Counted from the first letter of the stretch, positions 1-47,966 are shown. The stretch is DNA of 64,000 bases from an uncultured Thermococci archaeon (GCA_964595645.1 CAZQQT010000003.1:1-64000), one strand, 5' to 3'. Notes: generated from the sequence alone by a model not told the origin. Program-made: numbers and translations.

Positions 1-302
1 TTCTGGTTGGTTCTTATAGGTTTATAAACTTATCGGTCAAATGGTTCCAAAGCCGATTGATGTTATATTGAAAGGACAATTTTTTTATAAATGGAATTCC
101 CAAACACTACATGAGAGACATGAATGATGATCTTAGTCTAGATGAATGGGAAGATATTTTTCAGAAAATTGCGAATCCCTCTATGGATCCTTGATTCAGA
201 TTATAACATCTTAAAAATTAACAGAGCAGCAGTTGACGTTATAGAAATCCGGTGAATCTAGGACATGATTTGTCTACTATCTATATCTCTTCTTTTTTAT
301 CC

Positions 303-26489: not shown

Positions 26490-27074
26490 ATGGGGTTATT
26501 TTCTCGGAAACCGAAAATAGAGCAATTACGAAATAACGGGGATATTAGAGGATTGAATGAAGCGCTTGCTCATGAAGACACTATGATCAGATTTGAATCT
26601 TCTTTAGCGCTTGCAGATCTTGCTGAAAAAGGGATAGGAAGCAGTTCTTCTATACCGCCTCTCAACCGTGCACTGAATGATACAGATCCGTATGTGAGGA
26701 GCAATGCCGCTCTTACACTTGTACGGCTTGTGCAAATAGGTGTGGGAGATTCCTCGTCTATTCCGTATCTGCACAAAGTATTGCAGAATAACTATGCACA
26801 TTCGCCAGCAAACATGTATGCACGAGGATTTGCCATTGATACGCTTCGATTCTTGGCGCAGAAAGGGATAGTAGATCGTTCTTCACTTTCTGTTCTTGAT
26901 ACCGTATATAAAGAAGATCCTGAGTATGAAATAGCAAGAGCTGCTCGAAATGCCTTTAAGGAGATCCAAAAAATAATGGGATCTTCTTCCCAAGAAAAAG
27001 GCGAATGCCCGTCTTGCGGACATGAGAATCCTCCAGATTCGATGTACTGCAGTAGCTGTGGAAATAAATTGTGA
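26490..27074 (+). CDS. HEAT (PBS-lyase-like) repeat protein with C-terminal zinc ribbon
   Basis: 194 aa. Repeated DxxVRxxAAxALxxL units; C-terminal CPSCGHENPPDSMYCSSCGNKL. Confidence 0.7.
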   Translation: MGLFSRKPKIEQLRNNGDIRGLNEALAHEDTMIRFESSLALADLAEKGIGSSSSIPPLNRALNDTDPYVRSNAALTLVRLVQIGVGDSSSIPYLHKVLQNNYAHSPANMYARGFAIDTLRFLAQKGIVDRSSLSVLDTVYKEDPEYEIARAARNAFKEIQKIMGSSSQEKGECPSCGHENPPDSMYCSSCGNKL

Positions 27075-27091
27075 AAACAGAGGATTTCGCT

Positions 27092-28216
27092 ATGAAACAA
27101 TCAGATATCAGAAAAATGAGAAATAATAGAGATATTTGTGGATTAAATGCTTTAATAACTCACAACGATCTAGAAACAAGAATACAGGCTATGGTAGCGC
27201 TTGCAGATCTTGCAAAGAAAGGCATCGCAGATTCATCGTCGTTACCGTATTTGAACAATGCATTGAGCGATACAGAGGAAGGTGTACGGATCAACGCAGC
27301 GTATGTGCTTGCATCCCTCGCAGAAAATGACATCAAGGACGAATCCTCGATTGCTCCTTTGAAAAAGGCTCTCGAAGACCGCAATGTATATGTACGGATA
27401 AATGCACGAGGAGCACTGAGAAGAATGGGCGTTCAGGCGAAAAAATCCGTCCGAGATTCCATACCCCTAGGCAATCCATTGGCAGAGCTTCTAAAGAGGG
27501 CCGAAAACATAGAGAAATTAAACGTTATACTCGAAACCGGCACCGATAAAGAAAAGACCAATGCTGCCTACGCGCTTGGACAGCTTGCCGATGCTGGAAA
27601 AGGAGATAAATCCTCGATACCTCTTCTTAACAATGCATTAGAAGAGGATAACAAGTATCTCCAATCAGCAGCTGCCTACGCACTGAGTTTTCTCGCAGGG
27701 ATAGGAGTAGGCGATGTTTCCTCACTGCCATCACTGAAAAGAGTATTACAAGAAGGAGACGATTCTGCAAAGAACATGGCTGCACACGCAGTCGCAAACC
27801 TTGTCAAAATGGGCATCGTTGATACATCGCTTATCACACCTTTAAACAGAGCTCTTACCACGGGGGACGAGTCCGTACGCTCTGCATCTGCCCATGCTCT
27901 AGCTTCTCTTGCCGAAAAGCAAGTAGGTGATCCATCGTCGATCACTCCTCTCAACGCTCTTGTACAAACTGACGATCTCATGGGGAAGATATACGGAATC
28001 TACGCGATCCAGTGTCTTGCAGAAATGGGCATCGGCGATCCGTCCTCAATACCATACGTAACAGAAGCCTTAGGAGACGAAGAGGTAGCAGAATCTGCAC
28101 GAAAAGCGTGTAATGCTCTCCAAGCACTCCTTCAGAAAAAGACATGCTCAAACTGCGGAGAAAAATTCCCTATAAATTCAATATACTGTTCCAACTGCGG
28201 AAAGAAGTTACAGTGA
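27092..28216 (+). CDS. HEAT repeat protein with C-terminal zinc ribbon (larger paralog)
   Basis: About 374 aa from ATG 27092, with at least 8 HEAT-like units (D.SSIP.L..AL.D....VR..AA.AL..LA). C-terminal CSNCGEKFPINSIYCSNCGKKLQ. Stop codon of the upstream HEAT gene lies 17 nt before the start. Confidence 0.7.
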   Translation: MKQSDIRKMRNNRDICGLNALITHNDLETRIQAMVALADLAKKGIADSSSLPYLNNALSDTEEGVRINAAYVLASLAENDIKDESSIAPLKKALEDRNVYVRINARGALRRMGVQAKKSVRDSIPLGNPLAELLKRAENIEKLNVILETGTDKEKTNAAYALGQLADAGKGDKSSIPLLNNALEEDNKYLQSAAAYALSFLAGIGVGDVSSLPSLKRVLQEGDDSAKNMAAHAVANLVKMGIVDTSLITPLNRALTTGDESVRSASAHALASLAEKQVGDPSSITPLNALVQTDDLMGKIYGIYAIQCLAEMGIGDPSSIPYVTEALGDEEVAESARKACNALQALLQKKTCSNCGEKFPINSIYCSNCGKKLQ

Positions 28217-29374
28217 GTGTATTTCTTTTAGTATGGGGGGTATAGGAAGTTCTGCTTTCTCAAGACTTCGTTTGTATCCCCTCAGTGCCTGAAGACCTTG
28301 AGGTGTGAGGTACCATCGGATGGATGTAGGACGACGTGGTGCCCGCGAAGGACTGAAGATTGACTCGGCAATGGAATGGGCTGTTTTCGAAAGCGAGGAT
28401 CGTTCTTCGTTTGTTATCGTATCTCCCCACGGATGGTTGTAGTATCCTCTGTTTTTGAGGCCTCTGATTGTTACTTTTGGGAATGTTTCCTTGTATGTGA
28501 TTTCTCCCTTAATACGCTGGTACCAGTAGGAGGACTGCGTCGCATGTTGTCCATGCCAGACCTGTGCACATGTGAGGGGTAAATCTTCGACACCTGTATC
28601 AAAGTCCACCGCTCCCTTTTTCGCGAGTGCGGTAGCAACAATAAGCTCATTTTGTTTTATTTTATTGTCAATTGCGACGAGGATCGGACCTGCAGAGATA
28701 AGTACAGGCCCCGGACCGTCCCTCACCATTACTTTCACGGGGTATCCGTAGTAGGATGCAATGATCTGGGCAATCTCAGACGCACGAGAAAATATTTCCC
28801 GATGGAAAAGACATAACCCAAGGGCATGCAATTCTCGGTACGTTCCTGTGGAAAATCCTGAGAGTTCGGTGTACTCACTGAGGTATTGTATACCACCATT
28901 TTCACTGGCAAAATGAAGTGATACTTCCTGCAGCCGAAACTTCATCTTGATATACTCACGCACAATCTCCTCAAAGTCTGGAATACTCTCGAAGGAAGGA
29001 ACGTTTTTTCTCTCGGTGTATTCCCGGAGTTTTTTCATTTTGTGCTCTCGTATCTCCTTTGCAAGAGGATTAGCCTCTTTGTCTACCATTGCGTAGAGCC
29101 CTAAAAGCGTCTCTTTCATTGCAGCAACACGATCGTATACAATGTTCGTTGCACCACAGTAGTCGCAGGCAATGACTTCCTTCATATTTCCCCGGTATTC
29201 CATCGGTGCACCGCACTGCTGGCAGGTTACCAGATCGAAGATAAGCGAGGATTCCATCGTTTCAACAGTTTTCGTGGCGGCTTGCGGCGTTAATGCTGTT
29301 CCGCAGAAAGAGCAGTACTGTGAATCTGAGGGAGTTTTCGCACTGCAGTTGGGGCATACGAGTCGTTCTGCCAT
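28208..29374 (-). CDS. double zinc-ribbon protein with uncharacterised C-terminal domain (last gene of the rSAM/SPFH operon)
   Basis: Start taken at MAERLV (29374, SD gaggt 7 nt upstream). CPNCSAKTPSDSQYCSFCG and CQQCGAP ... CDYCG ribbons, then a ~300-aa domain with no recognised motif. Confidence 0.6.
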   Translation of the reverse strand: MAERLVCPNCSAKTPSDSQYCSFCGTALTPQAATKTVETMESSLIFDLVTCQQCGAPMEYRGNMKEVIACDYCGATNIVYDRVAAMKETLLGLYAMVDKEANPLAKEIREHKMKKLREYTERKNVPSFESIPDFEEIVREYIKMKFRLQEVSLHFASENGGIQYLSEYTELSGFSTGTYRELHALGLCLFHREIFSRASEIAQIIASYYGYPVKVMVRDGPGPVLISAGPILVAIDNKIKQNELIVATALAKKGAVDFDTGVEDLPLTCAQVWHGQHATQSSYWYQRIKGEITYKETFPKVTIRGLKNRGYYNHPWGDTITNEERSSLSKTAHSIAESIFSPSRAPRRPTSIRWYLTPQGLQALRGYKRSLEKAELPIPPILKEIHSL

Positions 29375-29403
29375 GTAATACCTCGATAATAAAAAAAGAA
29401 GCT

Positions 29404-30372
29404 CTAAAGTTTTTCTCCACACTCCGGACAGAATTTACTTCCCGTTGGAATCTCAGCGCCGCATTTTTTACATTTCAATTTTGTTTTCGGCATCGAAAGT
29501 TCATTCCCACAGTTGGGGCAGAACTTTGAGCTTCGTGGCACCTGATAGTTACATTTTGGGCAGATAACTGTTGCCACACCAGCACCTTGTGGCGCCAGAA
29601 GATTTGTCGCGCCCTGCATTGCATAGGGAACTGCCATGAACCCCGCACCTAATGCGGCACCACCTCCTTTCGTCTCCTTAATAGCATCTGCAAACTTTTC
29701 TGCTACTTCCTTCCCTACCAACTGTTCAGCAGTAACGCCGCGCTGTAAATAGAATAGCTTGTTTTTGTATTCGTCGGGGATTGTAACTCCTTCAATTTTT
29801 AAGTCCACCATATCGATACCGAATCTGTCAAAATCACCTCGTAGCCGCGCTTTGATAAATATTGATGTTTCTTCTGTTTGTTGGTAGACATTGTAAGATG
29901 TCTGCTCGGCGAGGTTGTCGATGAACTTCTCGATAATAAACGCTTCTACAAAGTTCCTCACATCTTCCTTGGTGAATTTCCCAAGATTTCCGACGATCTC
30001 GACAATAAACAGTTTCGGATCCTCAATCTGCACAAAACATCTCCCAAAGGCACCACAAGGCACCATGTCCCTTAGCATGACCTTCTGTTTCGTGCCGAAT
30101 TTGAACTCCACCTTCGAAGTGTTCACAAAGACTACTTCTGCGGTGAAGGGAGTTCTCCCCTGGAAGAGTATTTTATATGCGTTGAAAATCAGAGGGATGT
30201 TCATCGTTGTCAGTGTGTGTCTTCCTGGACCCAGTACATCGTACGCCTTCCCGTCTCGGAAGAAAACCGCCTGTTGATTCTCTCGTACTACCAGCTGGTC
30301 TCCCATAGTAACCTCCCCTCTGTATGCGTAGGCGAGGTCATTTTCCGTTCCTCTCCAATCGATAACTCTCAT
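29404..30372 (-). CDS. SPFH/Band-7 (Band_7_1 type) protein with C-terminal double zinc ribbon
   Basis: 322 aa. MRVIDWRGTEND ... LVVRENQQAVFFRDGKAYDVLGPGRH ... VVFVN ... fits the Band_7_1 SPFH pattern (B. subtilis YdjI-like). C-terminal CPKCNYQVPRSSKFCPNCG and CKKCGAEIPTGSKFCPECG. Confidence 0.65.
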   Translation of the reverse strand: MRVIDWRGTENDLAYAYRGEVTMGDQLVVRENQQAVFFRDGKAYDVLGPGRHTLTTMNIPLIFNAYKILFQGRTPFTAEVVFVNTSKVEFKFGTKQKVMLRDMVPCGAFGRCFVQIEDPKLFIVEIVGNLGKFTKEDVRNFVEAFIIEKFIDNLAEQTSYNVYQQTEETSIFIKARLRGDFDRFGIDMVDLKIEGVTIPDEYKNKLFYLQRGVTAEQLVGKEVAEKFADAIKETKGGGAALGAGFMAVPYAMQGATNLLAPQGAGVATVICPKCNYQVPRSSKFCPNCGNELSMPKTKLKCKKCGAEIPTGSKFCPECGEKL

Positions 30373-30836
30373 TCATTCACCTTTTCATCGCCCTCACTCA
30401 CATCCGTCATTATATCTTCTCTTTTTTCAAACTCGTCCTCTATAACTCTGAGATGTTTCAGGATGTTTTTTGGGTCTTCTCTCTCTTTTATTTCTTCAAT
30501 CCTTTTTAATATTTTCTCATCGTACTTGTAGAGTCTCTCAAGCTCTTCTTCATCAATATGTATTGGATCAAAAAATCCTGCATAGCCGTAATCTGCGTGT
30601 TCTATCTTATCGATCATCTTCTGGATCTGCTGGATGATTTCCTCGCAGTGTTTCAACTCATCCATTTCTTTGACTCCCTCTTCCATGTACTCAAAATCCT
30701 TTTTAATATACTTTAATTCGTCACATATTTTCTCTCGCAGATGTTTATCACTTTCTCTTCTCAGCTCTTTTTTCTTGTAGCCCTTAAACCCCGGTATTAA
30801 CAACTCTATTTTTTCCAATATTCTACGTTTTTCCAT
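30369..30836 (-). CDS. coiled-coil protein (possible PspA/ESCRT-III-like helper; unverified)
   Basis: 155 aa, highly charged, heptad-rich. Its last 4 nt overlap the SPFH gene start. Confidence 0.5.
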   Translation of the reverse strand: MEKRRILEKIELLIPGFKGYKKKELRRESDKHLREKICDELKYIKKDFEYMEEGVKEMDELKHCEEIIQQIQKMIDKIEHADYGYAGFFDPIHIDEEELERLYKYDEKILKRIEEIKEREDPKNILKHLRVIEDEFEKREDIMTDVSEGDEKVNE

Positions 30837-30844
30837 AAAAACAC

Positions 30845-32098
30845 CTACCTACAGTATGTATCAAGAGGACACCCGGCAGTACATTCTTTGTCTTTGTACA
30901 TCTCACACTCCTTGCAGTCCTCCGGCATGTACTCTCTCTGCCGTATGTATTTGGCCAATTTTGAGTTCCATATTACCTCCCACGGATCGGTCAGCATGTT
31001 TCCCATAGGCTCGAACCAGCTCTGACAGGGGATTACATCTCCATTTGGCTCTACGGTAACGTTGATCCGTGCAGCAGAACAGACCTTCAATCCGAGTCCG
31101 TACTCCACAGGATCGATCTTACATCGCTCTGTGGGCGTGTACCAGATCAGTTCCAGCCCGAGCTCATCACAGGTCGTCACGACTCTTTCGAGTGTCTCTT
31201 TCAGTTGCTCTACAGAAAGAGCATGTTCTCTCTTTGCTTTTCCAGAGTAAATAATGGAGTTAAATGCAACTCTCTCCAGACCTAAATCGCTCAAAAAATG
31301 GATAAAATCTTCTACATCCTTATAGTTATACTCCATCAATGTCGTGTTCGTGAGAGTGAATACAGAGGAGTCTATAGCTTTTTTGATTCCCTCCACGGTT
31401 TCTTTCCACGCATTCGCTCCGACGATTTTATTGTGGACATCTTCAAATCCCTCGATGGTAATCTGCACGTGATCGAGTTCCGCCTGTTCCAGTGCATCCA
31501 TTTGTTGTGAGAGGAGTCTTCCATTGGTGATGAGGCCGGTGACCAGTTCATTACTGTATGCTACCAAATCCACAAGATCATCCCGCAGTAACGGTTCTCC
31601 ACCGGTGAAGACGATGGCGTTACTCAGTTCAGAAATTTTTTCAATGATTACCTTCCATTTCTTTGTGCTGAGCTCCTCTTTCTCCCGTGGAGACGCTGCG
31701 TAACAGTGGATACATTTATTATTGCATCGGTACGTGAGTGCAAGATCGAACCTGTGCGGCGCCGAGAGATCATACTCCTTTGAAAAGGGAGAGATACGTT
31801 CTATATCAAGCGAAGAGAAGGGACAGAGATCTGTGGATGATGCCAGCCCAATGATATTGAAGTATACCTTCTCGTAGTCCTTTTCCACCTTTTCTTTCTC
31901 CACTGTGTATTCTTTTGTCATGATGTCCACTATCTCTTCTCTCGTGTTCTCGTCCATGATATGTTTTACATATTCTGCAGCTGTGTTGTTGAGATAGAGG
32001 ATATGAGCGCCGTTTATATTCAACACAGAGAAATCTTTTTCCTCTCGTAAGCTCAGCCGTATTTTTCCTTCTTCAAATTTTAGTGTCTTTCTACGCAT
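30845..32098 (-). CDS. radical SAM / SPASM-domain enzyme with N-terminal PqqD-like (RRE) domain
   Basis: Start MRRKTLKF at 32098 (ATGA overlap with upstream stop; SD GGAGGAGGTGG 7 nt upstream). Residues ~15-90 (SVLNINGAHILYLNNTAAEYVKHIMDENTREEIVDIMTKEYTVEKEKVEKDYEKVYFNI) resemble a PqqD/RRE winged helix. CNNKCIHC is a CX3CX2C radical SAM motif. C-terminal SPASM cysteines are C-x13-GDVIPC and CKECEMYKDKECTAGCP. Confidence 0.8.
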   Translation of the reverse strand: MRRKTLKFEEGKIRLSLREEKDFSVLNINGAHILYLNNTAAEYVKHIMDENTREEIVDIMTKEYTVEKEKVEKDYEKVYFNIIGLASSTDLCPFSSLDIERISPFSKEYDLSAPHRFDLALTYRCNNKCIHCYAASPREKEELSTKKWKVIIEKISELSNAIVFTGGEPLLRDDLVDLVAYSNELVTGLITNGRLLSQQMDALEQAELDHVQITIEGFEDVHNKIVGANAWKETVEGIKKAIDSSVFTLTNTTLMEYNYKDVEDFIHFLSDLGLERVAFNSIIYSGKAKREHALSVEQLKETLERVVTTCDELGLELIWYTPTERCKIDPVEYGLGLKVCSAARINVTVEPNGDVIPCQSWFEPMGNMLTDPWEVIWNSKLAKYIRQREYMPEDCKECEMYKDKECTAGCPLDTYCR

Positions 32099-33684
32099 CA
32101 GAATCCACCTCCTCCTGCACAGGCACACGCGCAGGATACACAGGCACACGCGCAGGCACAGGATGCACATGCACAGACACAGGCTTTCTCGGAGTGTCCC
32201 ACTTCCTTTCCCGCGATGATTCCTGCGAATGTCTTCTCACTGAGGCCCGGGTTTTTCTCAACACTTTGTTTCCCTTTGTTGAACTCCTCTGCAAACTTCT
32301 CTCCAGAGTACTCCCCCTTCGGAAGATGGTACCAGAGCCACCACGACGTGGGCGTGAAAGCGGTATCAACATCTTTAAATGTTGTTCTTGCCCGGCCGTC
32401 AAACTTCTCATCGATCATCAGCCATCCAGCCTTCTTGCCGAAGAGTCTATATTTCTCCTCAGGAGATATAGTTTTGAGTTCTCCCCAGTACGCTTCAATC
32501 TCGTCTGTATAGTATTTTTCTGTATCTTTTCTACAGTATCCCTTCATTTTTCTATTCACTGCATTATTCAGGCCCTTCAGGACCAGTTTCATACCTTTTT
32601 CATCGAATGTCCCATCCTTCTTCATCCCTTTGAGGAGGAACTGATTTTCGTAGTAGAAGGTTTTTCCTTCGAAGGTAACCTCACAACCGCAGTACTCACA
32701 GAACTCTCTTTCAGATTCTCCTGTCATAGGTGCACCGCAGTTTGGACAGTGATATGCTTTCTCTTCCTCTCGTGACGGGAGTATCTCAACTTTTACAGGG
32801 CTCCATTCCTGTATTCTTATTTTTCCTTTTTTCACCAATCCGTAGAGAAGAATGTTAATTATTTTAAAGGGATGCGCACCCAAAAGTACAGCAGCTTCAA
32901 TATTATCAAGATCCTTCCTTACACCAAGTGATTCCATATGCATTTTTGGGTCTATATACTCTTTCGCCTTTTTTGCTGCTTTGTAGATACCATAACCTAT
33001 GAATATAACAACTACTAGAATAATTGCTACACCTATGAGTATTGAAGACGTATCCGGACCGGGTTTTTCCTCCGTCACATTTGTTACGTACCCTTCCGGG
33101 AATGAGATTCCGCATCTAAATTTTTCTCCTTCTCCAAGTGTTCTTTCCCAGTAGGCAAATGCCCAGCCGTTCTCTTCATCGAAGGTGTCTGCAGGTGCCG
33201 GCTCACATCCAAGCTCGTTCAGCGTTACACCCTCGGGTGCAATTAGTTTTACCCGCAGTACTTTTACCTCTTGATAGTCCCACCAGGCAGGATAAAATTC
33301 TACCCCCACCCTCCCTTCCTCATCTTTGTATACCATTTTTGGAACAATAAGATGGATTTTCATTCGTGTGACATCGCCCGTCTCGGCAACACGGGGGAAG
33401 TAGATCTTCAATCTCGTCCCTTGTTTCTCCACATCCAGCATTCTTCCATCGGATGTGACTGTGTAATCAATAATTTCTTCCTTTGGAATTCCAAAATAGA
33501 TCCCTTGCTGAGGTCCTTCTGTCGTTTTTATCGTTAGAAAGTACCATATGTCTAGAGAAGAGTCTTTTTGTACTGTAACTTCTACATTTTCCTCTTCTAT
33601 AAGAAATTCTGGTCCATCAGCAGAAAATGCACCAAGAAACAAAAAAAATGTCAGGATAAGAACAAGTCCATAGCATTGTTTCAT
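32098..33684 (-). CDS. type I membrane protein with cytoplasmic zinc ribbon and C-terminal (Cys-Ala)n-GGGGF tail
   Basis: 528 aa from MKQCYGLVLILTFFLFLGAFSA (ATG 33684, SD aggag upstream). ~230-aa ectodomain, TM ILIGVAIILVVVIFIGYGIY, cytoplasmic region with CPNCGAPMTGESEREFCEYCGC. Tail is KACVCACASCACACACVSCACACAGGGGF, followed by a TGA that overlaps the rSAM ATG. Confidence 0.7.
   Translation of the reverse strand: MKQCYGLVLILTFFLFLGAFSADGPEFLIEEENVEVTVQKDSSLDIWYFLTIKTTEGPQQGIYFGIPKEEIIDYTVTSDGRMLDVEKQGTRLKIYFPRVAETGDVTRMKIHLIVPKMVYKDEEGRVGVEFYPAWWDYQEVKVLRVKLIAPEGVTLNELGCEPAPADTFDEENGWAFAYWERTLGEGEKFRCGISFPEGYVTNVTEEKPGPDTSSILIGVAIILVVVIFIGYGIYKAAKKAKEYIDPKMHMESLGVRKDLDNIEAAVLLGAHPFKIINILLYGLVKKGKIRIQEWSPVKVEILPSREEEKAYHCPNCGAPMTGESEREFCEYCGCEVTFEGKTFYYENQFLLKGMKKDGTFDEKGMKLVLKGLNNAVNRKMKGYCRKDTEKYYTDEIEAYWGELKTISPEEKYRLFGKKAGWLMIDEKFDGRARTTFKDVDTAFTPTSWWLWYHLPKGEYSGEKFAEEFNKGKQSVEKNPGLSEKTFAGIIAGKEVGHSEKACVCACASCACACACVSCACACAGGGGF
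32104..32115 (-). promoter_or_regulatory. Shine-Dalgarno site of the rSAM gene, embedded in the Gly codons of the upstream gene
   Basis: Minus strand reads gcaGGAGGAGGTGGAttctgATG. The GGGGF-stop codons of the upstream gene double as the SD. Confidence 0.6.
32116..32185. repeat. imperfect tandem repeat (~21-nt unit, TGT-GCN alternation) encoding the Cys-Ala tail
   Basis: Plus strand: cacaggcacacgcgcagg-ataca-caggcacacgcgcagg-cacaggatgcacatgcacagacacagg. It causes the shadow ORFs 32083..32775 (+) and the MCILCLRVCLC extension of the rSAM ORF. Confidence 0.7.
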
Positions 33685-35191: not shown

Positions 35192-36391
35192 ATGAAGGAG
35201 TATCTCCACGATCCCTACACGACACAATTTGAGGCTAACGTAGTGAGCATTGACGAGAATGCGGTGATACTGGATAGAACGTACTTTCATCCCGAAGGAG
35301 GAGGACAACCCGCAGACAGAGGATATATTGGCGGCGCTGAGGTACAGGATGTCCAGGAAAAGGAGGATACTGTTGTTCATTATCTCTCGGAGATTCCCTT
35401 TTCTGAAGGGCAGAAGGTGTTTTGTGACATCGATGAGGAGTTCCGACGATACTGTATGCGGTCCCACACTGGTGCACACATTGTTTTTGGTGCGGCCCGG
35501 ACACTTTTTGACGATGTTTCGTATGCTGGATTTGGGATAGGCGAGACGTCCACGAGGATAGATTTCGGTACGGAAACCACGGTTGACGACGATCTTCTTC
35601 TCCAGCTTGAATACCTCTCAAACAAGATCGTGCTGGAAGGAAAAGAGATCTTGCACTACTTCTCGGATGAAGTAGACGATGAACGGCTAAAAAAACTTGT
35701 GTACGCGAAGGAGATGCCTTCTGGGAGAATGAGGGTGGTAGAAATTGAAGATTGGGATGTCGCCGCGTGCAGCGGTACGCATTTCACAAATACTCGCGAA
35801 ATCGGACTTATCACGGTACTTGGAAAATCGAAGTTGCAGGAGGGTGTTACACGGATAGAGTTTACCGTGGGAGACCATGCGCTCGATAGATATATGGATG
35901 AAAAAAAGGAGCTTCATGAGGCTGCGTCTCTGCTGCATACGTCGACGAACGAGGTCTCTCAAAAGATTGCCAAACTCTTTGAGGAGTTGGATGCCAAAAA
36001 GAAAGAAAATAAGGAGCTGAAAGAGCGTCTTGTCGGTCAGGAAATCGAAAAACTGCAGCGTTCTCCCATAAATATAGGAGATTATCAGCTGCATATGGGA
36101 AAAATTTCGAGTAATGATCCAAATAACCTCGGTATTCTCTCAAAAAAAATGGTAGAAACGAAAGAAAAGTCGGTTGCTGTGTTACTATCAGAGATCCATG
36201 GAAAGATGACACTTGCAGCAAGTTGCACACCAGACATTCCGATTAATCTCAGCGATGCCTTGCAAGATGTTGTGAGAAAGCTCGGAGGGGGTGGAGGAGG
36301 CGGTCCCCGCTTTTTCCAGGCGGGTGGGATTACTGCACCATGTGAGAAGTTGCAAATGAGTGTGAAGAAGGAATTTTCGAAAAAATTATAA
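35192..36391 (+). CDS. alaX: AlaX-L-type alanyl-tRNA editing protein
   Basis: 399 aa. AlaRS second-additional/editing domain motifs HTGAHIV and CSGTHF, plus a C-terminal DHHA1-like domain with GGGGGGGP. Confidence 0.85.
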   Translation: MKEYLHDPYTTQFEANVVSIDENAVILDRTYFHPEGGGQPADRGYIGGAEVQDVQEKEDTVVHYLSEIPFSEGQKVFCDIDEEFRRYCMRSHTGAHIVFGAARTLFDDVSYAGFGIGETSTRIDFGTETTVDDDLLLQLEYLSNKIVLEGKEILHYFSDEVDDERLKKLVYAKEMPSGRMRVVEIEDWDVAACSGTHFTNTREIGLITVLGKSKLQEGVTRIEFTVGDHALDRYMDEKKELHEAASLLHTSTNEVSQKIAKLFEELDAKKKENKELKERLVGQEIEKLQRSPINIGDYQLHMGKISSNDPNNLGILSKKMVETKEKSVAVLLSEIHGKMTLAASCTPDIPINLSDALQDVVRKLGGGGGGGPRFFQAGGITAPCEKLQMSVKKEFSKKL

Positions 36392-36414
36392 GGAACGAAA
36401 ATGGAGGAAATACT

Positions 36415-37158
36415 ATGTTAGAAATAAACATCCTAGGAATCTCAGCAAGTCCACGAGAAGGAAATAGTATGTACTTGTTACAAGAAGCACTAAACGCTGC
36501 GAAAGAAGTTAATCTCTCCCATGTTGAAGCTGAAACATATTCTATCAAAGGAAAAACCTTCAAGCCATGTATACACTGTTATGCTTGTCAAGACAAACTT
36601 AATGGGGAATGCGCAATTAAAGATGATTTTCAGGAACTAAGAAACAAATGGGTAGAGGCAGATGTTATTATTTATTCAGTACCGGTTTATCATATGAGTA
36701 TTCCAGGACAATTGAAATGTTTCATTGATAGGTTAGGCAATAGTCTAAATACATACTATAATCATAAATATGAGGAAAAAGGGATAATGAGATCAATGAA
36801 AGTGATTGGTTCAATAGCACAGGGTAGGCATATTTTTTCAGGACAAGAACATACTCTCACTGATTTAATTAATCATACTATCCTTATGGGAAGTGTTCCC
36901 CTTTCTGCAGATTTATGGGAGGCATATATAGGTGTAGGAGGATGGACAGCTAACAAAAGAGACAAAAACTCTATAAAAAAACTCAACAATAAAAAAGACT
37001 TCGATGCATCAATCACCGTAAAGGCATGTAGAAATTTAGGAAAGAGATCAGTCGAACTTGCATCAATACTTATAGGGGGAGCGCTTGAATATAGAAGTTA
37101 TCTCGAAAAAGATCCTTCTTACGCTCCGTTACTTCGTAGATCAGAAAGATTCACTTAA
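36415..37158 (+). CDS. iron-sulfur flavoprotein (Isf / NADPH-dependent FMN reductase-like)
   Basis: 247 aa. Flavodoxin-like start (INILGISASPREGNS) and compact cysteine cluster CIHCYACQDKLNGEC. Confidence 0.7.
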   Translation: MLEINILGISASPREGNSMYLLQEALNAAKEVNLSHVEAETYSIKGKTFKPCIHCYACQDKLNGECAIKDDFQELRNKWVEADVIIYSVPVYHMSIPGQLKCFIDRLGNSLNTYYNHKYEEKGIMRSMKVIGSIAQGRHIFSGQEHTLTDLINHTILMGSVPLSADLWEAYIGVGGWTANKRDKNSIKKLNNKKDFDASITVKACRNLGKRSVELASILIGGALEYRSYLEKDPSYAPLLRRSERFT

Positions 37159-37701
37159 TTGCAAAGTAATTGTAAAAAACTCTGTAGTGAGAGAAACTTT
37201 ACAGTTATGGTTAAGATCTTCAAAAAAGTTAACAAAGTATTTGGAAAGTATCTCTGAATAATGGTAACCCATATAATGATAGAATGTTAATGTTACATCA
37301 CCACTAATGGGATACTCAACAGTAATTCTTTCAAACCAATTGTTGGCTTTATAATTAAATGCGAGATGTTTCACTATTTTTTCCAAGGGTAGGTCTTCTA
37401 AGGATTCTTTTGTTATTATTTCTAGAGCTCTTCTGCAGCTTTTTTTATCCGAAAAATTTTCTATTTTTCCTTCTAATAAGTAATTAAAAGACTTTTTACT
37501 AAGAAATACTGCGTTATGATCTTTCATCCGCAACCAGTAAGAGTCTTCATCGGAGACTTCTTTAAGATTAATTTTTTCATCAAGTGCATCCAATGCTATT
37601 TCTATAACTTTCTTCTGTGTTTTAAAGTATTTTGCGAAAAATTTTAATTTATCATAATACTCTATGCTTAGGGTGGTATGTATTTGTTTAGTTTCTACCA
37701 T
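37141..37701 (-). CDS. hypothetical protein (AT-rich gene)
   Basis: 186 aa, no motif. Convergent with the Isf gene; the 3' ends overlap. Confidence 0.4.
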   Translation of the reverse strand: MVETKQIHTTLSIEYYDKLKFFAKYFKTQKKVIEIALDALDEKINLKEVSDEDSYWLRMKDHNAVFLSKKSFNYLLEGKIENFSDKKSCRRALEIITKESLEDLPLEKIVKHLAFNYKANNWFERITVEYPISGDVTLTFYHYMGYHYSEILSKYFVNFFEDLNHNCKVSLTTEFFTITLQLSESF

Positions 37702-37836
37702 ATTTGTCCACTAATCCATGTACATAAATATCTCTTTTGTGTACACAAGTTCTTATATACATGTACACGCATATAAACTTTTGGTAGACAAAGAATAAAT
37801 CTTTGTCTATAACAAAAAATTGAAGGAGGAAAAAAA

Positions 37837-37995
37837 ATGGCTTGGGGATTTCCAACGACGACTTTTTGGATGCTTATACTGACAGTGTTCGTAGGATTGC
37901 TACCGCTTTTGATATATATCTATGACATTGTGGCATATAGTAAAGTTGCTCCCGCAAAGCGTGCTAAGGAAGTAAGATCCAAGGAGGAGGAGTAA
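37837..37995 (+). CDS. small membrane protein, likely accessory subunit of the downstream symporter (not in the ORF track because under 60 aa)
   Basis: ATG 37837 follows SD aaggagga. Encodes MAWGFPTTTFWMLILTVFVGLLPLLIYIYDIVAYSKVAPAKRAKEVRSKEEE (52 aa, one TM). TAA stop lies 1 nt before the ATG of the SSS transporter, and its KEEE codons (aaggaggaggag) form that gene's SD. Confidence 0.5.
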   Translation: MAWGFPTTTFWMLILTVFVGLLPLLIYIYDIVAYSKVAPAKRAKEVRSKEEE

Positions 37996-37996
37996 A

Positions 37997-39454
37997 ATGG
38001 ACATAAAACTGATATTGTTTGGGGTCTACTGCATTGGAATATTGTTAGTGGGCTATCTAGGATACCTAAAAACAAAAACGTTGGGCGATTTCTATCTTGC
38101 AGGGCGGAAAATAAACAAATGGATCGGTGCCGGTACCTTTGCAGCTACTTTTGTAAGTGCAATTACCTTCGTATCGTGGATTGGCTTCGGCTGGCAATTT
38201 GGTACTGCATTAGTGCCAGTGTATATCTTTGGATGCTTGGTCGGGTTTTTCCTTTATGCTATCGTTGCTCCAAAGATAAATATCATTGCACATAGAAATG
38301 AGACGTATACACCATCGGATTATTATGAGGGACGGTTTGATAGCAGTTTTCTTAAGCTATGGGCCACTACGTTTACTATAGTAGGCTTTTGTGTCTATCT
38401 CGTAATACAGTTGATAGGAACTGGTGTACTCTTTGAAGTAATTGTAGGAATACCATTTGCTCAAGCTCTGATCATTCTTGGAATTGTGTATACTATTTAT
38501 ACACTGCTTGGCGGGATGAAATCTGTTGCGTGGACAGATACAATACAATTTTCAGTATTTGTACTCGCAACAATAATTGCTTTCATCTACGTACTGCCAG
38601 AAGTAGGTGGATTTAGTGGACTGACGACAACCATAAAATCGATTAATCCAAGCTTGTTGACACTGACATCTGGAGGCACGTTTAGCCCCTTGTGGATTTT
38701 TGGAATAGCATTTGCAGTTGCAGTAGTTATACCTCTCCACTACGGTTATTTCTCGCGGGCAATGGCAGCCAAAAGTCCTCGTGAAGCTCGTGCAATGGTC
38801 GGTATCGGTTCGACGGGATTATTGATATTTTACCTTGCTATAGCCGTATTGGCCCTTGCCGCAAGAGCCTATATTCCTGATACAAGCGCTATTGCAACAG
38901 ATGAAGCATTCCCTACAATGGTATTGGAACACTTTCCGACGTTACTAGCTGCGTTTATCCTCGCATCGTTAGGTGCTGCAGTGATGTCTACCACAGATTC
39001 GATTCTGTTACAGGTCGGTGCAAATGTTTCGAACGATATTTACGCCAAATTTATAAATCCCGATGCATCAGACAAGAAGACACTTATGGTAGCCCGAGTA
39101 CTCGTTATTGTATTTGCCATAATAACGATTCTTCTAGGGCTTACAAAGCCAGCTGTGCTATGGGAGATCTATAACTTCTTTATCGTATTCCTCGTAGCAC
39201 CGTACTTTGCAATCTTTTTCTTGGGACTGTACTGGAAAAAAGCTACAAAGGCTGGAGCGATTGTCGGTGCCGTATCCGGTGGAGTAATTGGATGTGCAAT
39301 CAATGGATGGCAAGTACTTGGAGGAGTACCAGAAGTTCTTTCGTACCATCCAACACTGTATGCCGTTCCAATCTCAGTGGTACTGATGATAATCGTCTCT
39401 TATATGACGAAGCCACTACCAAAAGAAGTTGTCGAAAAATGGTACAAAATTTAA
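37997..39454 (+). CDS. sodium:solute symporter (SSS) family transporter
   Basis: 485 aa, ~13 TM. N-terminal FYLAGRKINKWIGAGTFAATFVSAITFVS and a GG..S.AWTDTIQ segment, as in PutP/PanF-type SSS transporters. Confidence 0.85.
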   Translation: MDIKLILFGVYCIGILLVGYLGYLKTKTLGDFYLAGRKINKWIGAGTFAATFVSAITFVSWIGFGWQFGTALVPVYIFGCLVGFFLYAIVAPKINIIAHRNETYTPSDYYEGRFDSSFLKLWATTFTIVGFCVYLVIQLIGTGVLFEVIVGIPFAQALIILGIVYTIYTLLGGMKSVAWTDTIQFSVFVLATIIAFIYVLPEVGGFSGLTTTIKSINPSLLTLTSGGTFSPLWIFGIAFAVAVVIPLHYGYFSRAMAAKSPREARAMVGIGSTGLLIFYLAIAVLALAARAYIPDTSAIATDEAFPTMVLEHFPTLLAAFILASLGAAVMSTTDSILLQVGANVSNDIYAKFINPDASDKKTLMVARVLVIVFAIITILLGLTKPAVLWEIYNFFIVFLVAPYFAIFFLGLYWKKATKAGAIVGAVSGGVIGCAINGWQVLGGVPEVLSYHPTLYAVPISVVLMIIVSYMTKPLPKEVVEKWYKI

Positions 39455-39510
39455 AAAATCTCCTTTTTTTTTATTTGTCATTTTTTTTGGTCCACAAAGT
39501 CGTGATATTA

Positions 39511-40181
39511 TGGGTATAAAGGATAAAATAAAGTGTGGTGTTACAGGGTGCCCAAACGAGGTGATAGGTGAGTGCGATTATTGTGGCATACCTTTGTGCG
39601 AAGATCATGCTCAAAAATTAGAGACGAATAAGAGTACGGAGCTTTATTGCGCCGGATGTTTTCTTTATGTTTCAGTTTCTGGATTAAAAGAGAGAGATCT
39701 AGATCGTAGACTCATCCCAAATGTGTTATTCGTAAATAGTAGGAAATGCACAGGATGCAGAACCTGTGAACTTGTATGTTCGTTTGAGCATTTTGGAGTG
39801 TTTAGTTATGACAAGTCTGCTGTAGAATTAAAAAAGGATGAAGAATACGGCAAAACTGAAATTGTGCTATGCAGACACTGTGATGATCCAAAATGCGTTG
39901 AAATTTGTCCTACTGATGCGTTAAAAAAAGACAAAAATACTGGACTTGTTTCATTGAATAGAGAAAAATGTATTCAGTGTATGCGTTGCGTAGAAGAATG
40001 TCCTTATGATGCCATCTTTAGTTCCAAAGACAAAAAAATAATTAAATGTGATTTGTGCGGAGGAGATCCGATGTGTGCAAAATATTGTCCTGCAGAGGCT
40101 ATAGAATGGGTGAAAAAACATAAAATTGGAGAAAGAAAGAAACTTACTTATTTTATTTATCCAGAAGAGGAGGAAAGATGA
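39511..40181 (+). CDS. 4x[4Fe-4S] ferredoxin-type protein (electron partner of AOR)
   Basis: Start MGIKDKI at 39511. Four CxxCxxCxxxCP clusters (CTGCRTCELVC, CRHCDDPKCVEICP, CIQCMRCVEECP, CDLCGGDPMCAKYCP). Its PEEEER codons hold the SD of the AOR gene. Confidence 0.8.
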
Positions 40182-40182
40182 T

Positions 40183-42063
40183 ATGTCACTTAATAAAAAA
40201 ATCATAAAAGTGGATCTCACAAAGAAAAAAATAAACAAAGAGAGACTACCAAAGAAATTTTTCGAAAATTATCTTGGTGGAAGAGGGATGGGTGCAAAAA
40301 TTCTTTTCGAGGGAGTCAGTGAGACTACAGAACCTCTTTCTCCAGAAAATATAGTGATTGTGTCTACCGGGACGCTGGCAGGTACATTTGCTCCAGCATC
40401 AGCTAGACTCACGATCACATCTAAATCTCCCGAAACGGGTATCTACTGCAAAAGTAGCGTAGGTGGTCATTTTTCTCCAGAATTAAAATTTGCAGGGTAT
40501 GATGGCATTGTGATTTCTGGAGCTTCTGAAAATCCTGTTTATCTTAATATAAGAGATGATCTGGTTGAGATAAAAGATGCAACACATCTGTGGGGCAAGG
40601 ATGTACGCAAAACGAATGCTATACTGAAAAGAGAACTTGAAGATAAAAAAATCAATGTGCTCTCAATTGGTCCTGCAGGCGAAAATCTTGTGAAATATTC
40701 CTCGATCGTAAGTAATATATATAGACAAGCTGCAAGAGGGGGAATGGGCACTATTTGGGGATTTAAAAAACTTAAAGCTATAGCAGTAAGGGGTACAACA
40801 CCTTTGAAAGTTGCAAATCCCTCTCAATTCAAAAAAATAGCGTTGAAAGCAAGGAGGTCAGTGAAAAATGATCAGGATAGATTCTATCGCTATTTTTATT
40901 TTGGAGCAAACAGGGGACTTGTAGGGGCAAACGAGGTGGGATTTAACCCAACTAAAAATTTCCAGACTACTTACATGAAAAATGCTTATCCTACAGGAGG
41001 GGAATATATCCGCGAAAAATATATAGTACGAGAGAATGGATGTGGGTCGTGCGTTCTCTGTTGCGGACAGTCTTATGAAATTGATGATGGCCCCTTTGTC
41101 GGCACACATTCTGAAGGTCCAGAATGGGAAGCAGGAAGTTCATTCGGCGCGAGGATTTTCAATAACGATCCAGAAGTAGTCCTAAAAGCTAATGAGATAT
41201 GCAATATTAATGGTCTTGACCTCTCTTCAGCAATGAGTGTGATAGCGTTTGCAATGGAATGCTACGAGAACGAATTGTTGACTAAAAAGGATACAGAGGG
41301 ATTTTCCTTAGAATGGGGTAATACGGACACTGTACTAGAGCTCTTAAGAAAAATAGCGGAGAGAGAAGGTTTTGGAGATTTTCTCGCAGATTCAATTAAA
41401 GAAGTTTCAGGAAAGATAGGCAAAGAATCAGAAAAATATGCAATCCAAATCAAAGGACTGGGGCTTACAAGTGTTGATTTAAGATCAACTGTCCCATACG
41501 CTCTTGCCTTTGCGGTCAATCCTCGAGGAGGAGATCACTTACACACAGAAATAATTTGCCAGTTTGGTGGAACACCAGAGCATGAAGAAATCGCAAATAG
41601 AATAAGTGAAAGCTCCAAAGGAGCAGATCGTTTCTCCTTTAAAGGAAAGGCAAAAATGGTGAAGTATCACGAAGAAATTTGTTGCGCTTCAGATTGTTTA
41701 GGCATCTGTTTCATGCACACTCTTTCTTCACATAGAGTAAGTCCTGAACTTCTCTCAGGCATGTTTGAGAGTGCTACAGGTATTCCAATGAGCACAGGAA
41801 AGCTTCATAGAGCATGTGAAAGGATAGTGAATATAGAGAGGATGTTCAATGTGCGAGAAGGTTTGGGGAAGAAGGACGATACATTACCAAGGCGATTTTT
41901 CGATGAATCAGTGCCAAATGGGCCAGCAGAAGGATACAGAATACCTAAAAATAAATTTGATGAACTGCTTCAACAATATTACAGGATACATAGGTGGAAT
42001 TCTAGTGGAGTCCCCAAAGAAGAGACGTTAAAGAAACTCGAACTCGAAGAGTTAGTAAAGTAA
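40183..42063 (+). CDS. aor: tungsten-type aldehyde:ferredoxin oxidoreductase (AOR family)
   Basis: ~626 aa from ATG 40183. AOR N-terminal domain (FFENYLGGRGMGAKILFEGV), cluster-ligand region CGSCVLCCGQ, C-terminal pterin-binding domains. Confidence 0.9.
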   Translation: MSLNKKIIKVDLTKKKINKERLPKKFFENYLGGRGMGAKILFEGVSETTEPLSPENIVIVSTGTLAGTFAPASARLTITSKSPETGIYCKSSVGGHFSPELKFAGYDGIVISGASENPVYLNIRDDLVEIKDATHLWGKDVRKTNAILKRELEDKKINVLSIGPAGENLVKYSSIVSNIYRQAARGGMGTIWGFKKLKAIAVRGTTPLKVANPSQFKKIALKARRSVKNDQDRFYRYFYFGANRGLVGANEVGFNPTKNFQTTYMKNAYPTGGEYIREKYIVRENGCGSCVLCCGQSYEIDDGPFVGTHSEGPEWEAGSSFGARIFNNDPEVVLKANEICNINGLDLSSAMSVIAFAMECYENELLTKKDTEGFSLEWGNTDTVLELLRKIAEREGFGDFLADSIKEVSGKIGKESEKYAIQIKGLGLTSVDLRSTVPYALAFAVNPRGGDHLHTEIICQFGGTPEHEEIANRISESSKGADRFSFKGKAKMVKYHEEICCASDCLGICFMHTLSSHRVSPELLSGMFESATGIPMSTGKLHRACERIVNIERMFNVREGLGKKDDTLPRRFFDESVPNGPAEGYRIPKNKFDELLQQYYRIHRWNSSGVPKEETLKKLELEELVK

Positions 42064-42076
42064 AAAGGTGATCAAT

Positions 42077-42787
42077 ATGAGAATAAAAATTGTATTGCCG
42101 GTACCACATAATATGTGGAATGATCAAATACTTGCGAGCTGCAAGGAGGCTGCAAGTCAAAAGGCTGAAATTGAATTAGTGAACACTCAACATGGGGCAG
42201 AAACGTTAGAAGGATTTTATCACGCTAGTTTTGCTGAAAGAGACACGATTAATGAGATAATACAGGCTGAAAAAGACGGGTACGATGTTGTAGTGGTATG
42301 GTGCACTGCTAATGTAGGGGTAGAAGCAGCAAGGGAAGTAGTAAAAATACCTGTTGTTGGTATTATGGAGGCTGCACACTTATTGGCGATGTTACTCGGA
42401 CGAAGATTCTCAGAACTAGTTTCAGTAAAAAATGTAGTGGTGAGGCATGAAAGGAACGCAGAAATTCTCGGTTCCAATTCGAAACTTGCTTCTGTAAGAG
42501 AAATTGCGCTGCCAGTTAAAAAATTCCATGAAAATTTGGATTTAACTTATAAAAAGATGTTTGAAGCGGGAAAAAAAGCGATCGATGAGGACAATGCAGA
42601 TGTACTTGTACTTGGCTGTGGCGCAATGCTCGGAATAACTGATAAATTGAGTAAGGAGCTCGGCGTTCCAGTTATTGAACCTGGCAGTGCAGGCGTACAA
42701 ATGGCCGAAATGCTTGTGCATTTACATAAAGCTCACAGTAAAAAAGCGTATCCACTCCCCCTTGATGATATAAAGGTGATTAAATGA
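42077..42787 (+). CDS. Asp/Glu/hydantoin racemase superfamily protein
   Basis: ~236 aa from ATG 42077. Two-domain pattern (VVVWCTANVG ... IPVVG and VLVLGCGAM ... GVPVIEP), as in hydantoin racemase / EutA / maleate isomerase relatives. Confidence 0.55.
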   Translation: MRIKIVLPVPHNMWNDQILASCKEAASQKAEIELVNTQHGAETLEGFYHASFAERDTINEIIQAEKDGYDVVVVWCTANVGVEAAREVVKIPVVGIMEAAHLLAMLLGRRFSELVSVKNVVVRHERNAEILGSNSKLASVREIALPVKKFHENLDLTYKKMFEAGKKAIDEDNADVLVLGCGAMLGITDKLSKELGVPVIEPGSAGVQMAEMLVHLHKAHSKKAYPLPLDDIKVIK

Positions 42788-43779
42788 CAATACTAAAATA
42801 TGCAAAACTTGGAAGTTATGTAGTAAAAAAGTTGGCGAATATAGCTCCTAATGAAACTGTATTACTTTTAGGAGATACAGGAAGTAACAAATCAATGATG
42901 GATGCCATAATGTCTGCATCTATAGGGTTAGGTGTGGAAGTACAAATGCTCATGTATCCTGAGAGAAACACCACCAATGTCGAACCGTCAAGAGCAATTG
43001 CCGAAGCAATGAAAAATTCGGATGTCATAATTGATCTCTCAGTAAACTATTTTATTCATACCCAAGCGTATGATGATGCTCGCACAGCGGGTGCTCGGGC
43101 ACTTGTTACGATACCGCCAGGAATAGAAGAGTATATAAATGCAGGAGTTGTGGGGATAAATTATGAAAAAATGGTTAAAGAAGGCCAGATAATTGCCGAT
43201 CTATTTGAAAAGTCTAAAAAATGTAAAGTAATATCAGAAGAAGGAACTCATTTAGAAATGAACCTTGGTGAGAGACCTGCAGTGCTGAGAGATGGAATGG
43301 TGGTGAGCAGTGGTGAGATAGATTACTTCCCCGGAGCCCAAGTTTCACTGGCCCCTCTAGAGGATTCAATGAATGGTAAAATTGTCGCGAACGGGTCGAT
43401 ATATCCTCCGATCGGAAAACTTAGCGGAAACGTAGAAATTCAAGTAGAGGAGGGTACTATAGTTGAAATAAGTGGTTCTACAGATGCACAGGAATGGAAA
43501 AAATGGTTAAAGAGTCTAGAAGATAGAGAAATGTACAATATTGCACATTTTAGCATTGGATTCAACCCTAATGCAAATTTGAGAGGATATATCATCGAAG
43601 ATGAGAGAATTAGAGGCTCTGTGACTTGCGGATTTGGTTCTCAGATGATTGATTTCAAAGGAAAGTACGGAAAGGCAAAATCACATACAGATGTTGTTTC
43701 ACTCTTTAACACTGTTTTTTTGGATGATAAAAAGATTGTTGAAAATGGCAACATTCTTGTAGATGATAAAGATGAATAA
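42784..43779 (+). CDS. M29 aminopeptidase-like (AmpS / 2,5-dihydroxypyridine dioxygenase-like) protein
   Basis: 331 aa. N-terminal YVVKKLANIAPNETVLLLGD and C-terminal HFSIGFNPNA segments resemble peptidase family M29. Assigned by eye only. Confidence 0.45.
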   Translation: MTILKYAKLGSYVVKKLANIAPNETVLLLGDTGSNKSMMDAIMSASIGLGVEVQMLMYPERNTTNVEPSRAIAEAMKNSDVIIDLSVNYFIHTQAYDDARTAGARALVTIPPGIEEYINAGVVGINYEKMVKEGQIIADLFEKSKKCKVISEEGTHLEMNLGERPAVLRDGMVVSSGEIDYFPGAQVSLAPLEDSMNGKIVANGSIYPPIGKLSGNVEIQVEEGTIVEISGSTDAQEWKKWLKSLEDREMYNIAHFSIGFNPNANLRGYIIEDERIRGSVTCGFGSQMIDFKGKYGKAKSHTDVVSLFNTVFLDDKKIVENGNILVDDKDE

Positions 43780-45956: not shown

Positions 45957-46232
45957 ATTTTCTTATAAAGAGCTAAAAGTTTAAATGATAAAGAATAGCA
46001 TTGTGCAGATAAAATGTATTTTAAACGAGAGATGATAAAGGTATTTGTATGCAAAACTAACGAAACGTAAGAAGACACTGTGATAATCGCCTGCCTACGT
46101 GAAACATTCTATGAGAGATATCCTATATATATCCAAGACTAAAAATTGTAGCCATACGCATCATTGATCCTATCATAGCTACTGTTATAATGATGCAGAT
46201 TCATCGTACATACAATATAGAGGGGATTTATT

Positions 46233-47150: not shown

Positions 47151-47192
47151 ACCTAAAGCCTTTTATATGTAGAGTTTCCAGAGAGAAACGAT

Positions 47193-47912: not shown

Positions 47913-47966
47913 CCCATCTGTATTTAATGGAAACCTTTTTTTATCTCATCCCCTATTATCTATCCT

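Follow-up and report, generated by a model that had tools for sequence, protein, structure and literature searches.

A radical SAM-SPASM enzyme and a membrane protein with a cysteine-alanine tail form a conserved two-gene cassette in Thermococci and other archaea and bacteria

A stretch of 64,000 nt from an uncultured Thermococci archaeon (GCA_964595645.1 CAZQQT010000003.1:1-64000; the window, meaning this stretch at its full length) contained an operon of five tightly packed minus-strand open reading frames (ORFs; 28208-33684). The first gene was predicted to encode a type I membrane protein that ends in alternating cysteine and alanine residues, and the second a radical S-adenosylmethionine (SAM) enzyme with a SPASM domain and a recognition element (RRE) for peptides that are synthesized ribosomally and modified post-translationally (RiPPs). 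This arrangement raises the question of whether the Cys-Ala (CA) tail is the substrate of the enzyme encoded beside it, as a first-pass annotation of the same DNA had proposed. On the evidence of genes and models, the tail is likely the substrate. The overall explanation that we favour, with moderate confidence, is a two-gene cassette in which the tail is matured by radical chemistry and the product remains anchored in the membrane.

Full-length homologues of the enzyme, with 45-48% identity, were found in unrelated phyla. A scan of one genome per species with the enzyme alignment recovered 80 loci, 75 of which were informative because they included enough upstream DNA, and a CA-tail ORF stopped at the enzyme start in 70 of the 75. 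The expectation that the enzyme would adjoin a Cys-tail protein in relatives therefore held across many archaeal and bacterial phyla. The upstream proteins were homologous to the gene 1 product and had a length of about 550 aa (phmmer E 1e-12 to 1e-145). The archaeal carriers included Bathyarchaeia, Heimdall-, Hod-, Hermod- and Promethearchaeota, Thermoplasmatota, Methanocella, Thermococci, Nanoarchaeia, and Methanofastidiosa, and the bacterial carriers included Anaerolineae (among them the cultured Ornatilinea apprima), Nitrospirales, Planctomycetota, Zixibacteria, Coatesbacteria, Aminicenantes, Hydrogenedentes, and Clostridia. The partner gene was located downstream of the enzyme in one locus (L074) that had too little upstream DNA to be counted among the 75. 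Another Methanofastidiosa clade (L083/L084) carried the membrane gene and the enzyme gene alone, and such a minimal cassette implies that the substrate resides within the membrane protein or in some other part of the genome. The unit that is conserved comprises two genes, those for the membrane protein and the enzyme.

The first-pass annotation had described gene 1 as a 528-aa type I membrane protein with a zinc ribbon and a Cys-Ala end. The ORF agreed with this description, as it ends in KACVCACASCACACACVSCACACAGGGGF and holds CPNCGAP...CEYCGC. The same 27 C-terminal residues recurred virtually unchanged in 24 full-length homologues. Of the 150 best cluster representatives, 123 had the tail, and most of the others were fragments. 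The tail columns were among the few invariant ones in a cross-phylum alignment of the membrane protein (A2), which otherwise retained only 20-30% identity, and the tail was the best-conserved part of the protein across lineages. Three types of tail were distinguished: CxCACxxCACACACVSCACACA-GGG in Methanofastidiosa and Bathyarchaeia, (CA)3-5-G-(CA)3-GGGR in most bacteria, and (CA)6-GGGR in Asgard archaea and Thermoplasmatota. Two lineages carried the CA core internally, followed by an extra C-terminal domain of about 100 aa. Two proteins that appeared to be tail-less (P0163 and P0180) nevertheless had an internal CA core, with the enzyme downstream. The final CACACA was written in 63 distinct DNA spellings among 77 loci, with every synonymous Cys and Ala codon in use, thus indicating selection on the peptide and not on a DNA repeat. 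A DNA-level cause of the repeat, such as a microsatellite or an RNA structure, was ruled out on the same grounds.

In the AlphaFold2 (AF2) model of the gene 1 protein (mean predicted local distance difference test, pLDDT, of 79), a signal peptide and an extracellular beta-sandwich are followed by a single transmembrane helix, and the tail was predicted to be disordered (Table 1). A Lys-rich stretch (KAAKKAKE) stands directly after the transmembrane helix, and by the positive-inside rule the C-terminal half of the protein is probably cytoplasmic, which would place the tail within reach of the enzyme. A conserved amphipathic helix (PG-x-[DE]-F-A-...-E-x-T-...-N-[IV]-E-x-F) was located 25-60 residues N-terminal to the core in both archaea and bacteria, and was followed in the bacterial homologues by TNPxP and a Gly/Ser linker. 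This helix looks like the leader of a RiPP precursor. The zinc ribbon, on the other hand, was an insertion specific to the Methanofastidiosa/Theionarchaea clade and was missing from the bacterial, Asgard, and Bathyarchaeia homologues in A2; a precomputed PF24460 match to gene 1 homologues corresponds to this ribbon. Close homologues of gene 1, from Methanofastidiosia and Theionarchaea metagenomes, had overall identities of 29-76%. When 1.84 billion cluster representatives were searched exhaustively with a profile, the family numbered about 920 members at E<=1e-3, each a cluster at 50% identity. A homologue search with A2 returned the same 27 proteins again, apparently limited by its word-index candidate step. 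No Pfam or NCBIfam family matched the membrane protein in any lineage's version. For DUF2207, Pfam gave no match to the window protein, and the best of five homologues reached DUF2207_C with an E of 0.066 and 13 bits against a cut-off of 33.

The architecture that had been proposed for gene 2 was confirmed, since PqqD, Radical_SAM, and SPASM domains all scored above the Pfam cut-offs (PF05402, E 3e-7, 31.1 bits vs. 23.4; PF04055, E 5e-24; PF13186, E 5e-11, 43.2 bits vs. 21.5). The three cysteines of the radical SAM motif were invariant in 25 homologues (alignment A1), as were the seven SPASM cysteines, and an eighth cysteine followed these in 77% of the homologues. Several results supported the assignment of the N-terminal extension as an RRE. 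It passed the PqqD gathering threshold, the PqqD match recurred in 21 of 25 members of the enzyme family, and the AF2 model (pLDDT 85; predicted template modelling score, pTM, 0.86) started with four strands and then three helices, as is known for RREs. Foldseek comparison of the model with PDB libraries ranked SkfB first (E 3e-19, template modelling score 0.67), then CteB and SuiB, with PqqE and anSME after them, and the alignments with the RRE-bearing SkfB, CteB, and SuiB extended over the full length, including the N-terminus. The nearest solved structures by sequence were SkfB and PqqE. The cluster motif, the SPASM domain, the RRE, and a co-conserved adjacent candidate substrate were thus all found, and these place the enzyme in the architecture class of RRE-dependent radical SAM-SPASM maturases.

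The enzyme matched 73 NCBIfam families, each well short of the family's own cut-off. Among the models for sactisynthases and ranthisynthases, AlbA reached 68 bits against 850, SkfB 71.6 against 300, StsB 83.5 against 625, and PapB 58.9 against 340; among those for cofactor maturases, PqqE reached 115 against 381 and MftC 94.5 against 265, and no PqqA- or MftA-like peptide was seen among the ORFs of the window. The top NCBIfam matches also included NirJ2, AhbC, AhbD, and MoaA, which could indicate a housekeeping SPASM enzyme of haem or molybdenum-cofactor biosynthesis whose position next to gene 1 is meaningless. However, the housekeeping models (AhbC, AhbD, NirJ, and MoaA) yielded only 90-122 bits against cut-offs of 325-650, and such enzymes are devoid of the RRE that is present here. 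As the pair is also conserved in 70 of 75 loci across phyla, the housekeeping explanation is effectively refuted. Membership in the anSME class was likewise not supported, because the tail contains no C/S-x-P/A-x-R motif, the enzyme carries an RRE, and no sulfatase adjoins it. It does not belong to the enzymes of haem, molybdenum-cofactor, PQQ, or mycofactocin biosynthesis. Since every NCBIfam score falls far under its cut-off, the enzyme constitutes a separate family among the peptide maturases of the SPASM group, to which no curated family corresponds.

The tail is a likely substrate for such an enzyme because it is predicted to be cytoplasmic and disordered, is invariant, and has a leader-like helix before its core, and because the enzyme has a peptide-binding RRE. 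In the proposed mechanism, translation of gene 2 would be coupled to that of gene 1, and the enzyme would be cytoplasmic. The RRE would dock onto the leader-like helix just before the tail, the radical SAM cluster would cleave SAM, and the resulting 5'-deoxyadenosyl radical would take hydrogen from backbone or side-chain carbons of the repeat. Cys thiolates held at the auxiliary SPASM cluster might then form several intramolecular thioethers of the sactionine or ranthionine type, and this iterative modification would convert the flexible tail to a compact knob held by cross-links. The knob would remain on the membrane protein. Among the conceivable products, several thioether cross-links are the likeliest in view of the nearest structural relatives and of the other Cys-rich substrates, although by analogy with these the assignment is made tentatively.

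The enzyme might instead modify the tail by other radical chemistry, including epimerisation of alternate residues to a D/L pattern, conversion of Cys to formylglycine or dehydroalanine, C-C cross-links, or added methylation where a methyltransferase is present. The strict alternation of the repeat suits a register-dependent reaction, the epimerase EpeE and anSME occurred among the Foldseek neighbours, the C-C-forming enzymes PqqE and MftC scored as high as the sactisynthases in NCBIfam, and a conserved methyltransferase gene follows the enzyme gene in bacteria and Asgard archaea. The top full-length structural matches were, however, the thioether-forming SkfB and CteB. Moreover, Cys-rich substrates of RRE-SPASM enzymes, as in sactipeptides and ranthipeptides, have so far mostly yielded thioethers, and the anSME motif C-x-[PA]-x-R does not occur in the tail. 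Chemistry of this other kind is therefore rather unlikely. A further alternative leaves the tail outside the catalytic reaction: it may be a metallothionein-like or Fe-S metal site, with the enzyme acting elsewhere or merely exchanging clusters or electrons with it. Ten cysteines in CxC spacing do recall metal-thiolate motifs, the cassette is limited to anaerobes rich in Fe-S proteins, and a few enzyme loci have no partner gene. On the other hand, the RRE, a peptide-binding domain, is kept across the family, near-obligate adjacency and translational coupling typify enzyme-substrate pairs, and the strictly conserved Ala between the cysteines would be unnecessary for metal binding. A metal site with no modification of the tail is unlikely on these grounds, and modification of the tail by the enzyme remains the preferred reading.

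To find recurrent cassette genes, the ORFs of 82 loci were clustered. No protease, transporter, or further tailoring enzyme was conserved in these loci. This result bears on the possibility that the tail is the precursor of a RiPP or cofactor that is cleaved off after modification, as for PQQ, mycofactocin, and borosins, with the large protein serving as a mere carrier. PqqE and MftC were indeed among the best NCBIfam matches, and borosins carry their core peptide at the end of a large protein. However, conservation across two domains of life extends to the body of the 550-aa protein, and two lineages have an internal core with the domain of about 100 aa after it; together with the missing release genes, this makes a cleaved precursor very unlikely. 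With neither a protease nor an exporter conserved in the vicinity, the modified product probably stays on the protein.

Other genes joined the cassette facultatively. Downstream of the enzyme, most bacterial and Asgard cassettes encoded a generic class I SAM methyltransferase (Methyltransf_11) that contains an AEPDYGG-IDYP motif (e.g., L021:9232-10026, L034:9058-10026, L044:7694-8470, and L073:10350-11222), and lineages that bear it may perform extra tailoring chemistry. In 56 loci from archaea and bacteria, the gene directly 5' of the membrane gene encoded a small product (about 115-140 aa) that has two transmembrane helices and, at its C-terminus, a zinc ribbon terminating in EEP[KT]W (e.g., L002:6031-6378 and L073:5760-6146); no family match was obtained for this protein. 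Neither the methyltransferase nor the small zinc-ribbon protein had a homologue anywhere in the window. A fusion of this small upstream gene was considered as the source of the gene 1 zinc ribbon but was not supported, as a hidden Markov model (HMM) of the small ribbon missed the membrane proteins. The sole match of this HMM in the window was the second zinc ribbon of gene 5 (residues 62-92, CQQCGAPMEYRGNMKEVIACDYCGAT), a weak one with an E of 4e-4 in a tiny database.

The first-pass annotation had also placed the pair within an SPFH module. This module is present in the window operon, but it lies outside the conserved core, since the SPFH and coiled-coil genes adjoined the cassette only in the window, in its close relative L085, and in L001, L006 (Bathyarchaeia), and L008 (Nitrospirales). 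The description of the gene 4 product as a Band_7_1 protein with a double zinc ribbon was supported by PF13421 (129 bits vs. a cut-off of 24, E 2e-37) and by two Zn_Ribbon_1/DZR matches, and the protein resembles YdjI in its PF13421 domain, the lack of a membrane anchor, and the C-terminal zinc finger. The gene 3 product matched only NCBIfam LIMLP_15305, weakly (41 bits vs. a cut-off of 210), and its homologues in L001, L006, L008, and L085 were always encoded beside a Band_7_1 gene. A lineage with an internal CA core carried a PspA_IM30 gene, of the ESCRT-III type, and a gene for a small protein with two transmembrane helices after the enzyme (L088:9462-10615 and L086:9612-10757). YdjI of B. 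subtilis, a soluble Band_7_1 protein, requires the membrane proteins YdjG and YdjH for its localisation and recruits PspA (PMC8581546). According to the translated reverse primers in the same study (PMC8581546), YdjG ends in ...MGGGF and YdjH in ...GAGAVF, which is reminiscent of the GGGGF end of the window protein. These sequences hint that Gly-rich C-termini may be a shared feature of such membrane anchors. That SPFH and PspA genes recur as facultative neighbours suggests a role for the CA-tail protein at a membrane-maintenance interface, and a link of this kind, drawn from the neighbouring genes, is put forward with some reserve. In the genome of the window, the modified protein would probably have the YdjI-like SPFH protein and the coiled-coil protein as partners, and may serve as a membrane anchor for the SPFH partners or as a sensor in membrane maintenance.

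Several observations weigh against the favoured explanation. Its thioether chemistry is drawn by analogy, as the enzyme scores under every curated sactisynthase and ranthisynthase cut-off. Ala is rarely a thioether acceptor in known cases, and ten alternating cysteines could equally be a metal-binding motif. SPFH or PspA neighbours occurred in a minority of the loci only, and because the methyltransferase is found in most bacterial and Asgard cassettes and not in the window, the chemistry may differ by lineage. Furthermore, five of the 75 informative loci contained no intact upstream tail ORF: L028, L036, L044, and L077 had no partner gene, and in L063 the tail was frameshifted. The enzyme homologues of the four loci without a partner had about 40-43% identity, and L036 and L044 retained the methyltransferase. 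These four may constitute a sub-family that acts on another substrate.

Known systems share parts of this arrangement. SkfB, AlbA, CteB/SCIFF, and PapB combine an N-terminal RRE, a radical SAM core, and an auxiliary-cluster domain of the SPASM or Twitch type with a Cys-rich substrate encoded directly upstream, and include the best structural matches. Their substrates, however, are small free peptides (30-60 aa), which as a rule undergo cleavage and export, whereas the core described here ends a conserved membrane protein of about 550 aa and is accompanied by no conserved protease or exporter, and the enzyme scores far under every family cut-off. In QhpD-QhpC and anSME-sulfatase, the target of the SPASM enzyme is a protein that retains the product, and QhpD makes several Cys thioethers; in contrast to the present pair, neither has a comparable membrane-protein partner, and anSME is without an RRE and needs C/S-x-P/A-x-R. 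The repeat-peptide SPASM systems of Haft (ACGX-repeat, His-Xaa-Ser HxsBCD, SCIFF, and GeoRSP) were likewise found by co-occurrence of a short repeat or Cys-rich motif with a dedicated enzyme, but they differ in repeat unit and carrier, and the scores of the enzyme against them were low (rSAM_ACGX, 64 bits vs. 400; HxsC, 62.7 vs. 268; GeoRSP, 79 vs. 400). Borosins resemble the gene 1 protein in having a RiPP-like core at the C-terminus of a protein of several hundred residues, but methylate themselves, are soluble, and are set free by a protease, and involve neither a radical SAM enzyme nor a membrane anchor. In overall layout only, gene 1 is similar to DUF2207 proteins, with a signal peptide, a beta-rich ectodomain, a transmembrane helix, a post-helix motif, and a Gly-rich C-terminal tail. 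PspA-YdjGHI of B. subtilis includes a zinc-finger Band_7_1 protein, YdjI, that depends on membrane partners, and PspA adjoins the cassette in L088. Unlike the cassette, neither the DUF2207 nor the Ydj proteins have a CA repeat or a radical SAM partner.

The five minus-strand genes were all present at the coordinates that had been assigned to them, which are compiled in Table 1 with the features of their products. A Shine-Dalgarno-like GGAGA motif occurs 6 nt 5' of the MKQ start of gene 1. Where an ATGA overlap of the enzyme start with the gene 1 stop had been described, the junction actually reads TGATG, an overlap of 1 nt; an ATGA junction with a 4-nt overlap joins genes 3 and 4. Genes 2 and 3 are separated by 8 nt, and genes 4 and 5 overlap by 19 nt, provided that gene 5 starts at GTG. 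The longest gene 2 ORF has 24 extra codons upstream (32099-32170, minus strand), which translate as MCILCLRVCLCILRVCLCRRRWIL. These represent the Cys-Ala codons of gene 1 read out of frame and are thus not the true N-terminus; a comparable false tail arises from a frameshift in L063. The proposed double zinc ribbon of gene 5 was recovered as a PF12773 match. Gene 5 was found only in the window's operon among the loci compared; it is missing from the operon of the closest relative (L085), and its C-terminal domain had no homologue in other loci. The operon is bounded upstream by a divergent VIT-family gene and downstream by two convergent genes for HEAT-repeat proteins (26490-27074 and 27071-28216, plus strand), which overlap each other; both proteins end in a zinc ribbon of the CxxC...CxxCG type, as in genes 4 and 5. 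PADLOC assigned none of the five operon proteins to a defence system, with only generic viperin-like radical SAM matches for gene 2 and none for the other four. Elsewhere in the window, the region 36001-48000 has a lower GC content (0.35-0.42) and a strongly positive GC skew relative to the rest.

Table 1. Genes of the operon and features of their products, with window coordinates
Feature	Residues	Coordinates	Strand	Basis
Gene 1, type I membrane protein	528 aa	32098..33684	-	ORF read from MKQ start
Gene 1, signal peptide	1-23		-	AF2-based layout
Gene 1, extracellular beta-sandwich	27-196	33097..33606	-	AF2, confident
Gene 1, single transmembrane helix	213-241	32962..33048	-	AF2 helix
Gene 1, small helix-and-strand (winged-helix-like) domain, predicted cytoplasmic	261-301		-	AF2
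Gene 1, zinc ribbon CPNCGAP...CEYCGC		32686..32748	-	Sequence; clade comparison in alignment A2
Gene 1, helical domain	344-477		-	AF2
Gene 1, disordered C-terminal end	494-528		-	AF2
Gene 1, core tail CVCACASCACACACVSCACACAGGGGF, 10 Cys	502-528	32101..32181	-	Near-invariant columns; AF2 disordered
Gene 2, RRE-radical SAM-SPASM enzyme	417 aa	30845..32098	-	Pfam, NCBIfam, AF2, Foldseek
Gene 2, PqqD-like RRE	1-87	31838..32098	-	PF05402 at residues 25-77; AF2 fold
Gene 2, radical SAM core, CX3CX2C (C125, C129, C132)	121-269	31292..31738	-	PF04055 at residues 121-269
Gene 2, SPASM auxiliary-cluster region (C326, C340, C358, C395, C398, C406, C410)		30869..31123	-	PF13186 at residues 340-399
Gene 3, helical protein (predicted)	155 aa	30369..30836	-	ORF; weak NCBIfam LIMLP_15305 match
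Gene 4, soluble Band_7_1 SPFH protein, two C-terminal zinc ribbons, YdjI-like		29404..30372	-	Pfam
Gene 5, N-terminal double zinc ribbon protein	404 aa	28208..29422	-	PF12773 match

The first-pass annotation knew of no described system with this arrangement, and none was found in the families and literature searched: no Pfam or NCBIfam family, defence model, or paper covered the membrane protein family, its tail, or the pairing, in a search of roughly 8 million papers that left part of the PubMed Central author manuscripts outside its coverage. The system is real and apparently undescribed; the type of enzyme is known, and the substrate class and the system as a whole appear to be new. Radical SAM-SPASM maturases are known chiefly from small secreted peptides and a few cofactors; the present enzyme is probably devoted to the tail of a membrane protein that is large and conserved. 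The substrate class is easy to test, as the core comprises 15-27 residues and is almost invariant, and approachable carriers exist in the cultured O. apprima and in Ca. Heimdallarchaeum aukensis, which has a complete genome derived from a metagenome-assembled genome. The alternating Cys and Ala residues of the product may display new chemistry, and the pairing offers a possible first functional handle on a membrane protein family that is recurrently encoded beside SPFH and PspA genes. Members of this family are present in archaea, the Asgard relatives of eukaryotes included, and in bacteria. More speculatively, many anaerobic archaea, including Asgard archaea, and bacteria might possess a RiPP that stays permanently attached to its protein: a (CA)n end, made polycyclic by thioethers or otherwise non-proteinogenic, on a ribophorin-like membrane protein, acting as a cofactor, metal site, or interaction knob that links a sensor domain outside the cell with the membrane-maintenance machinery of ESCRT-III/PspA and SPFH proteins. 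If true, a widespread and ancient family of membrane proteins would carry a new class of post-translational modification.

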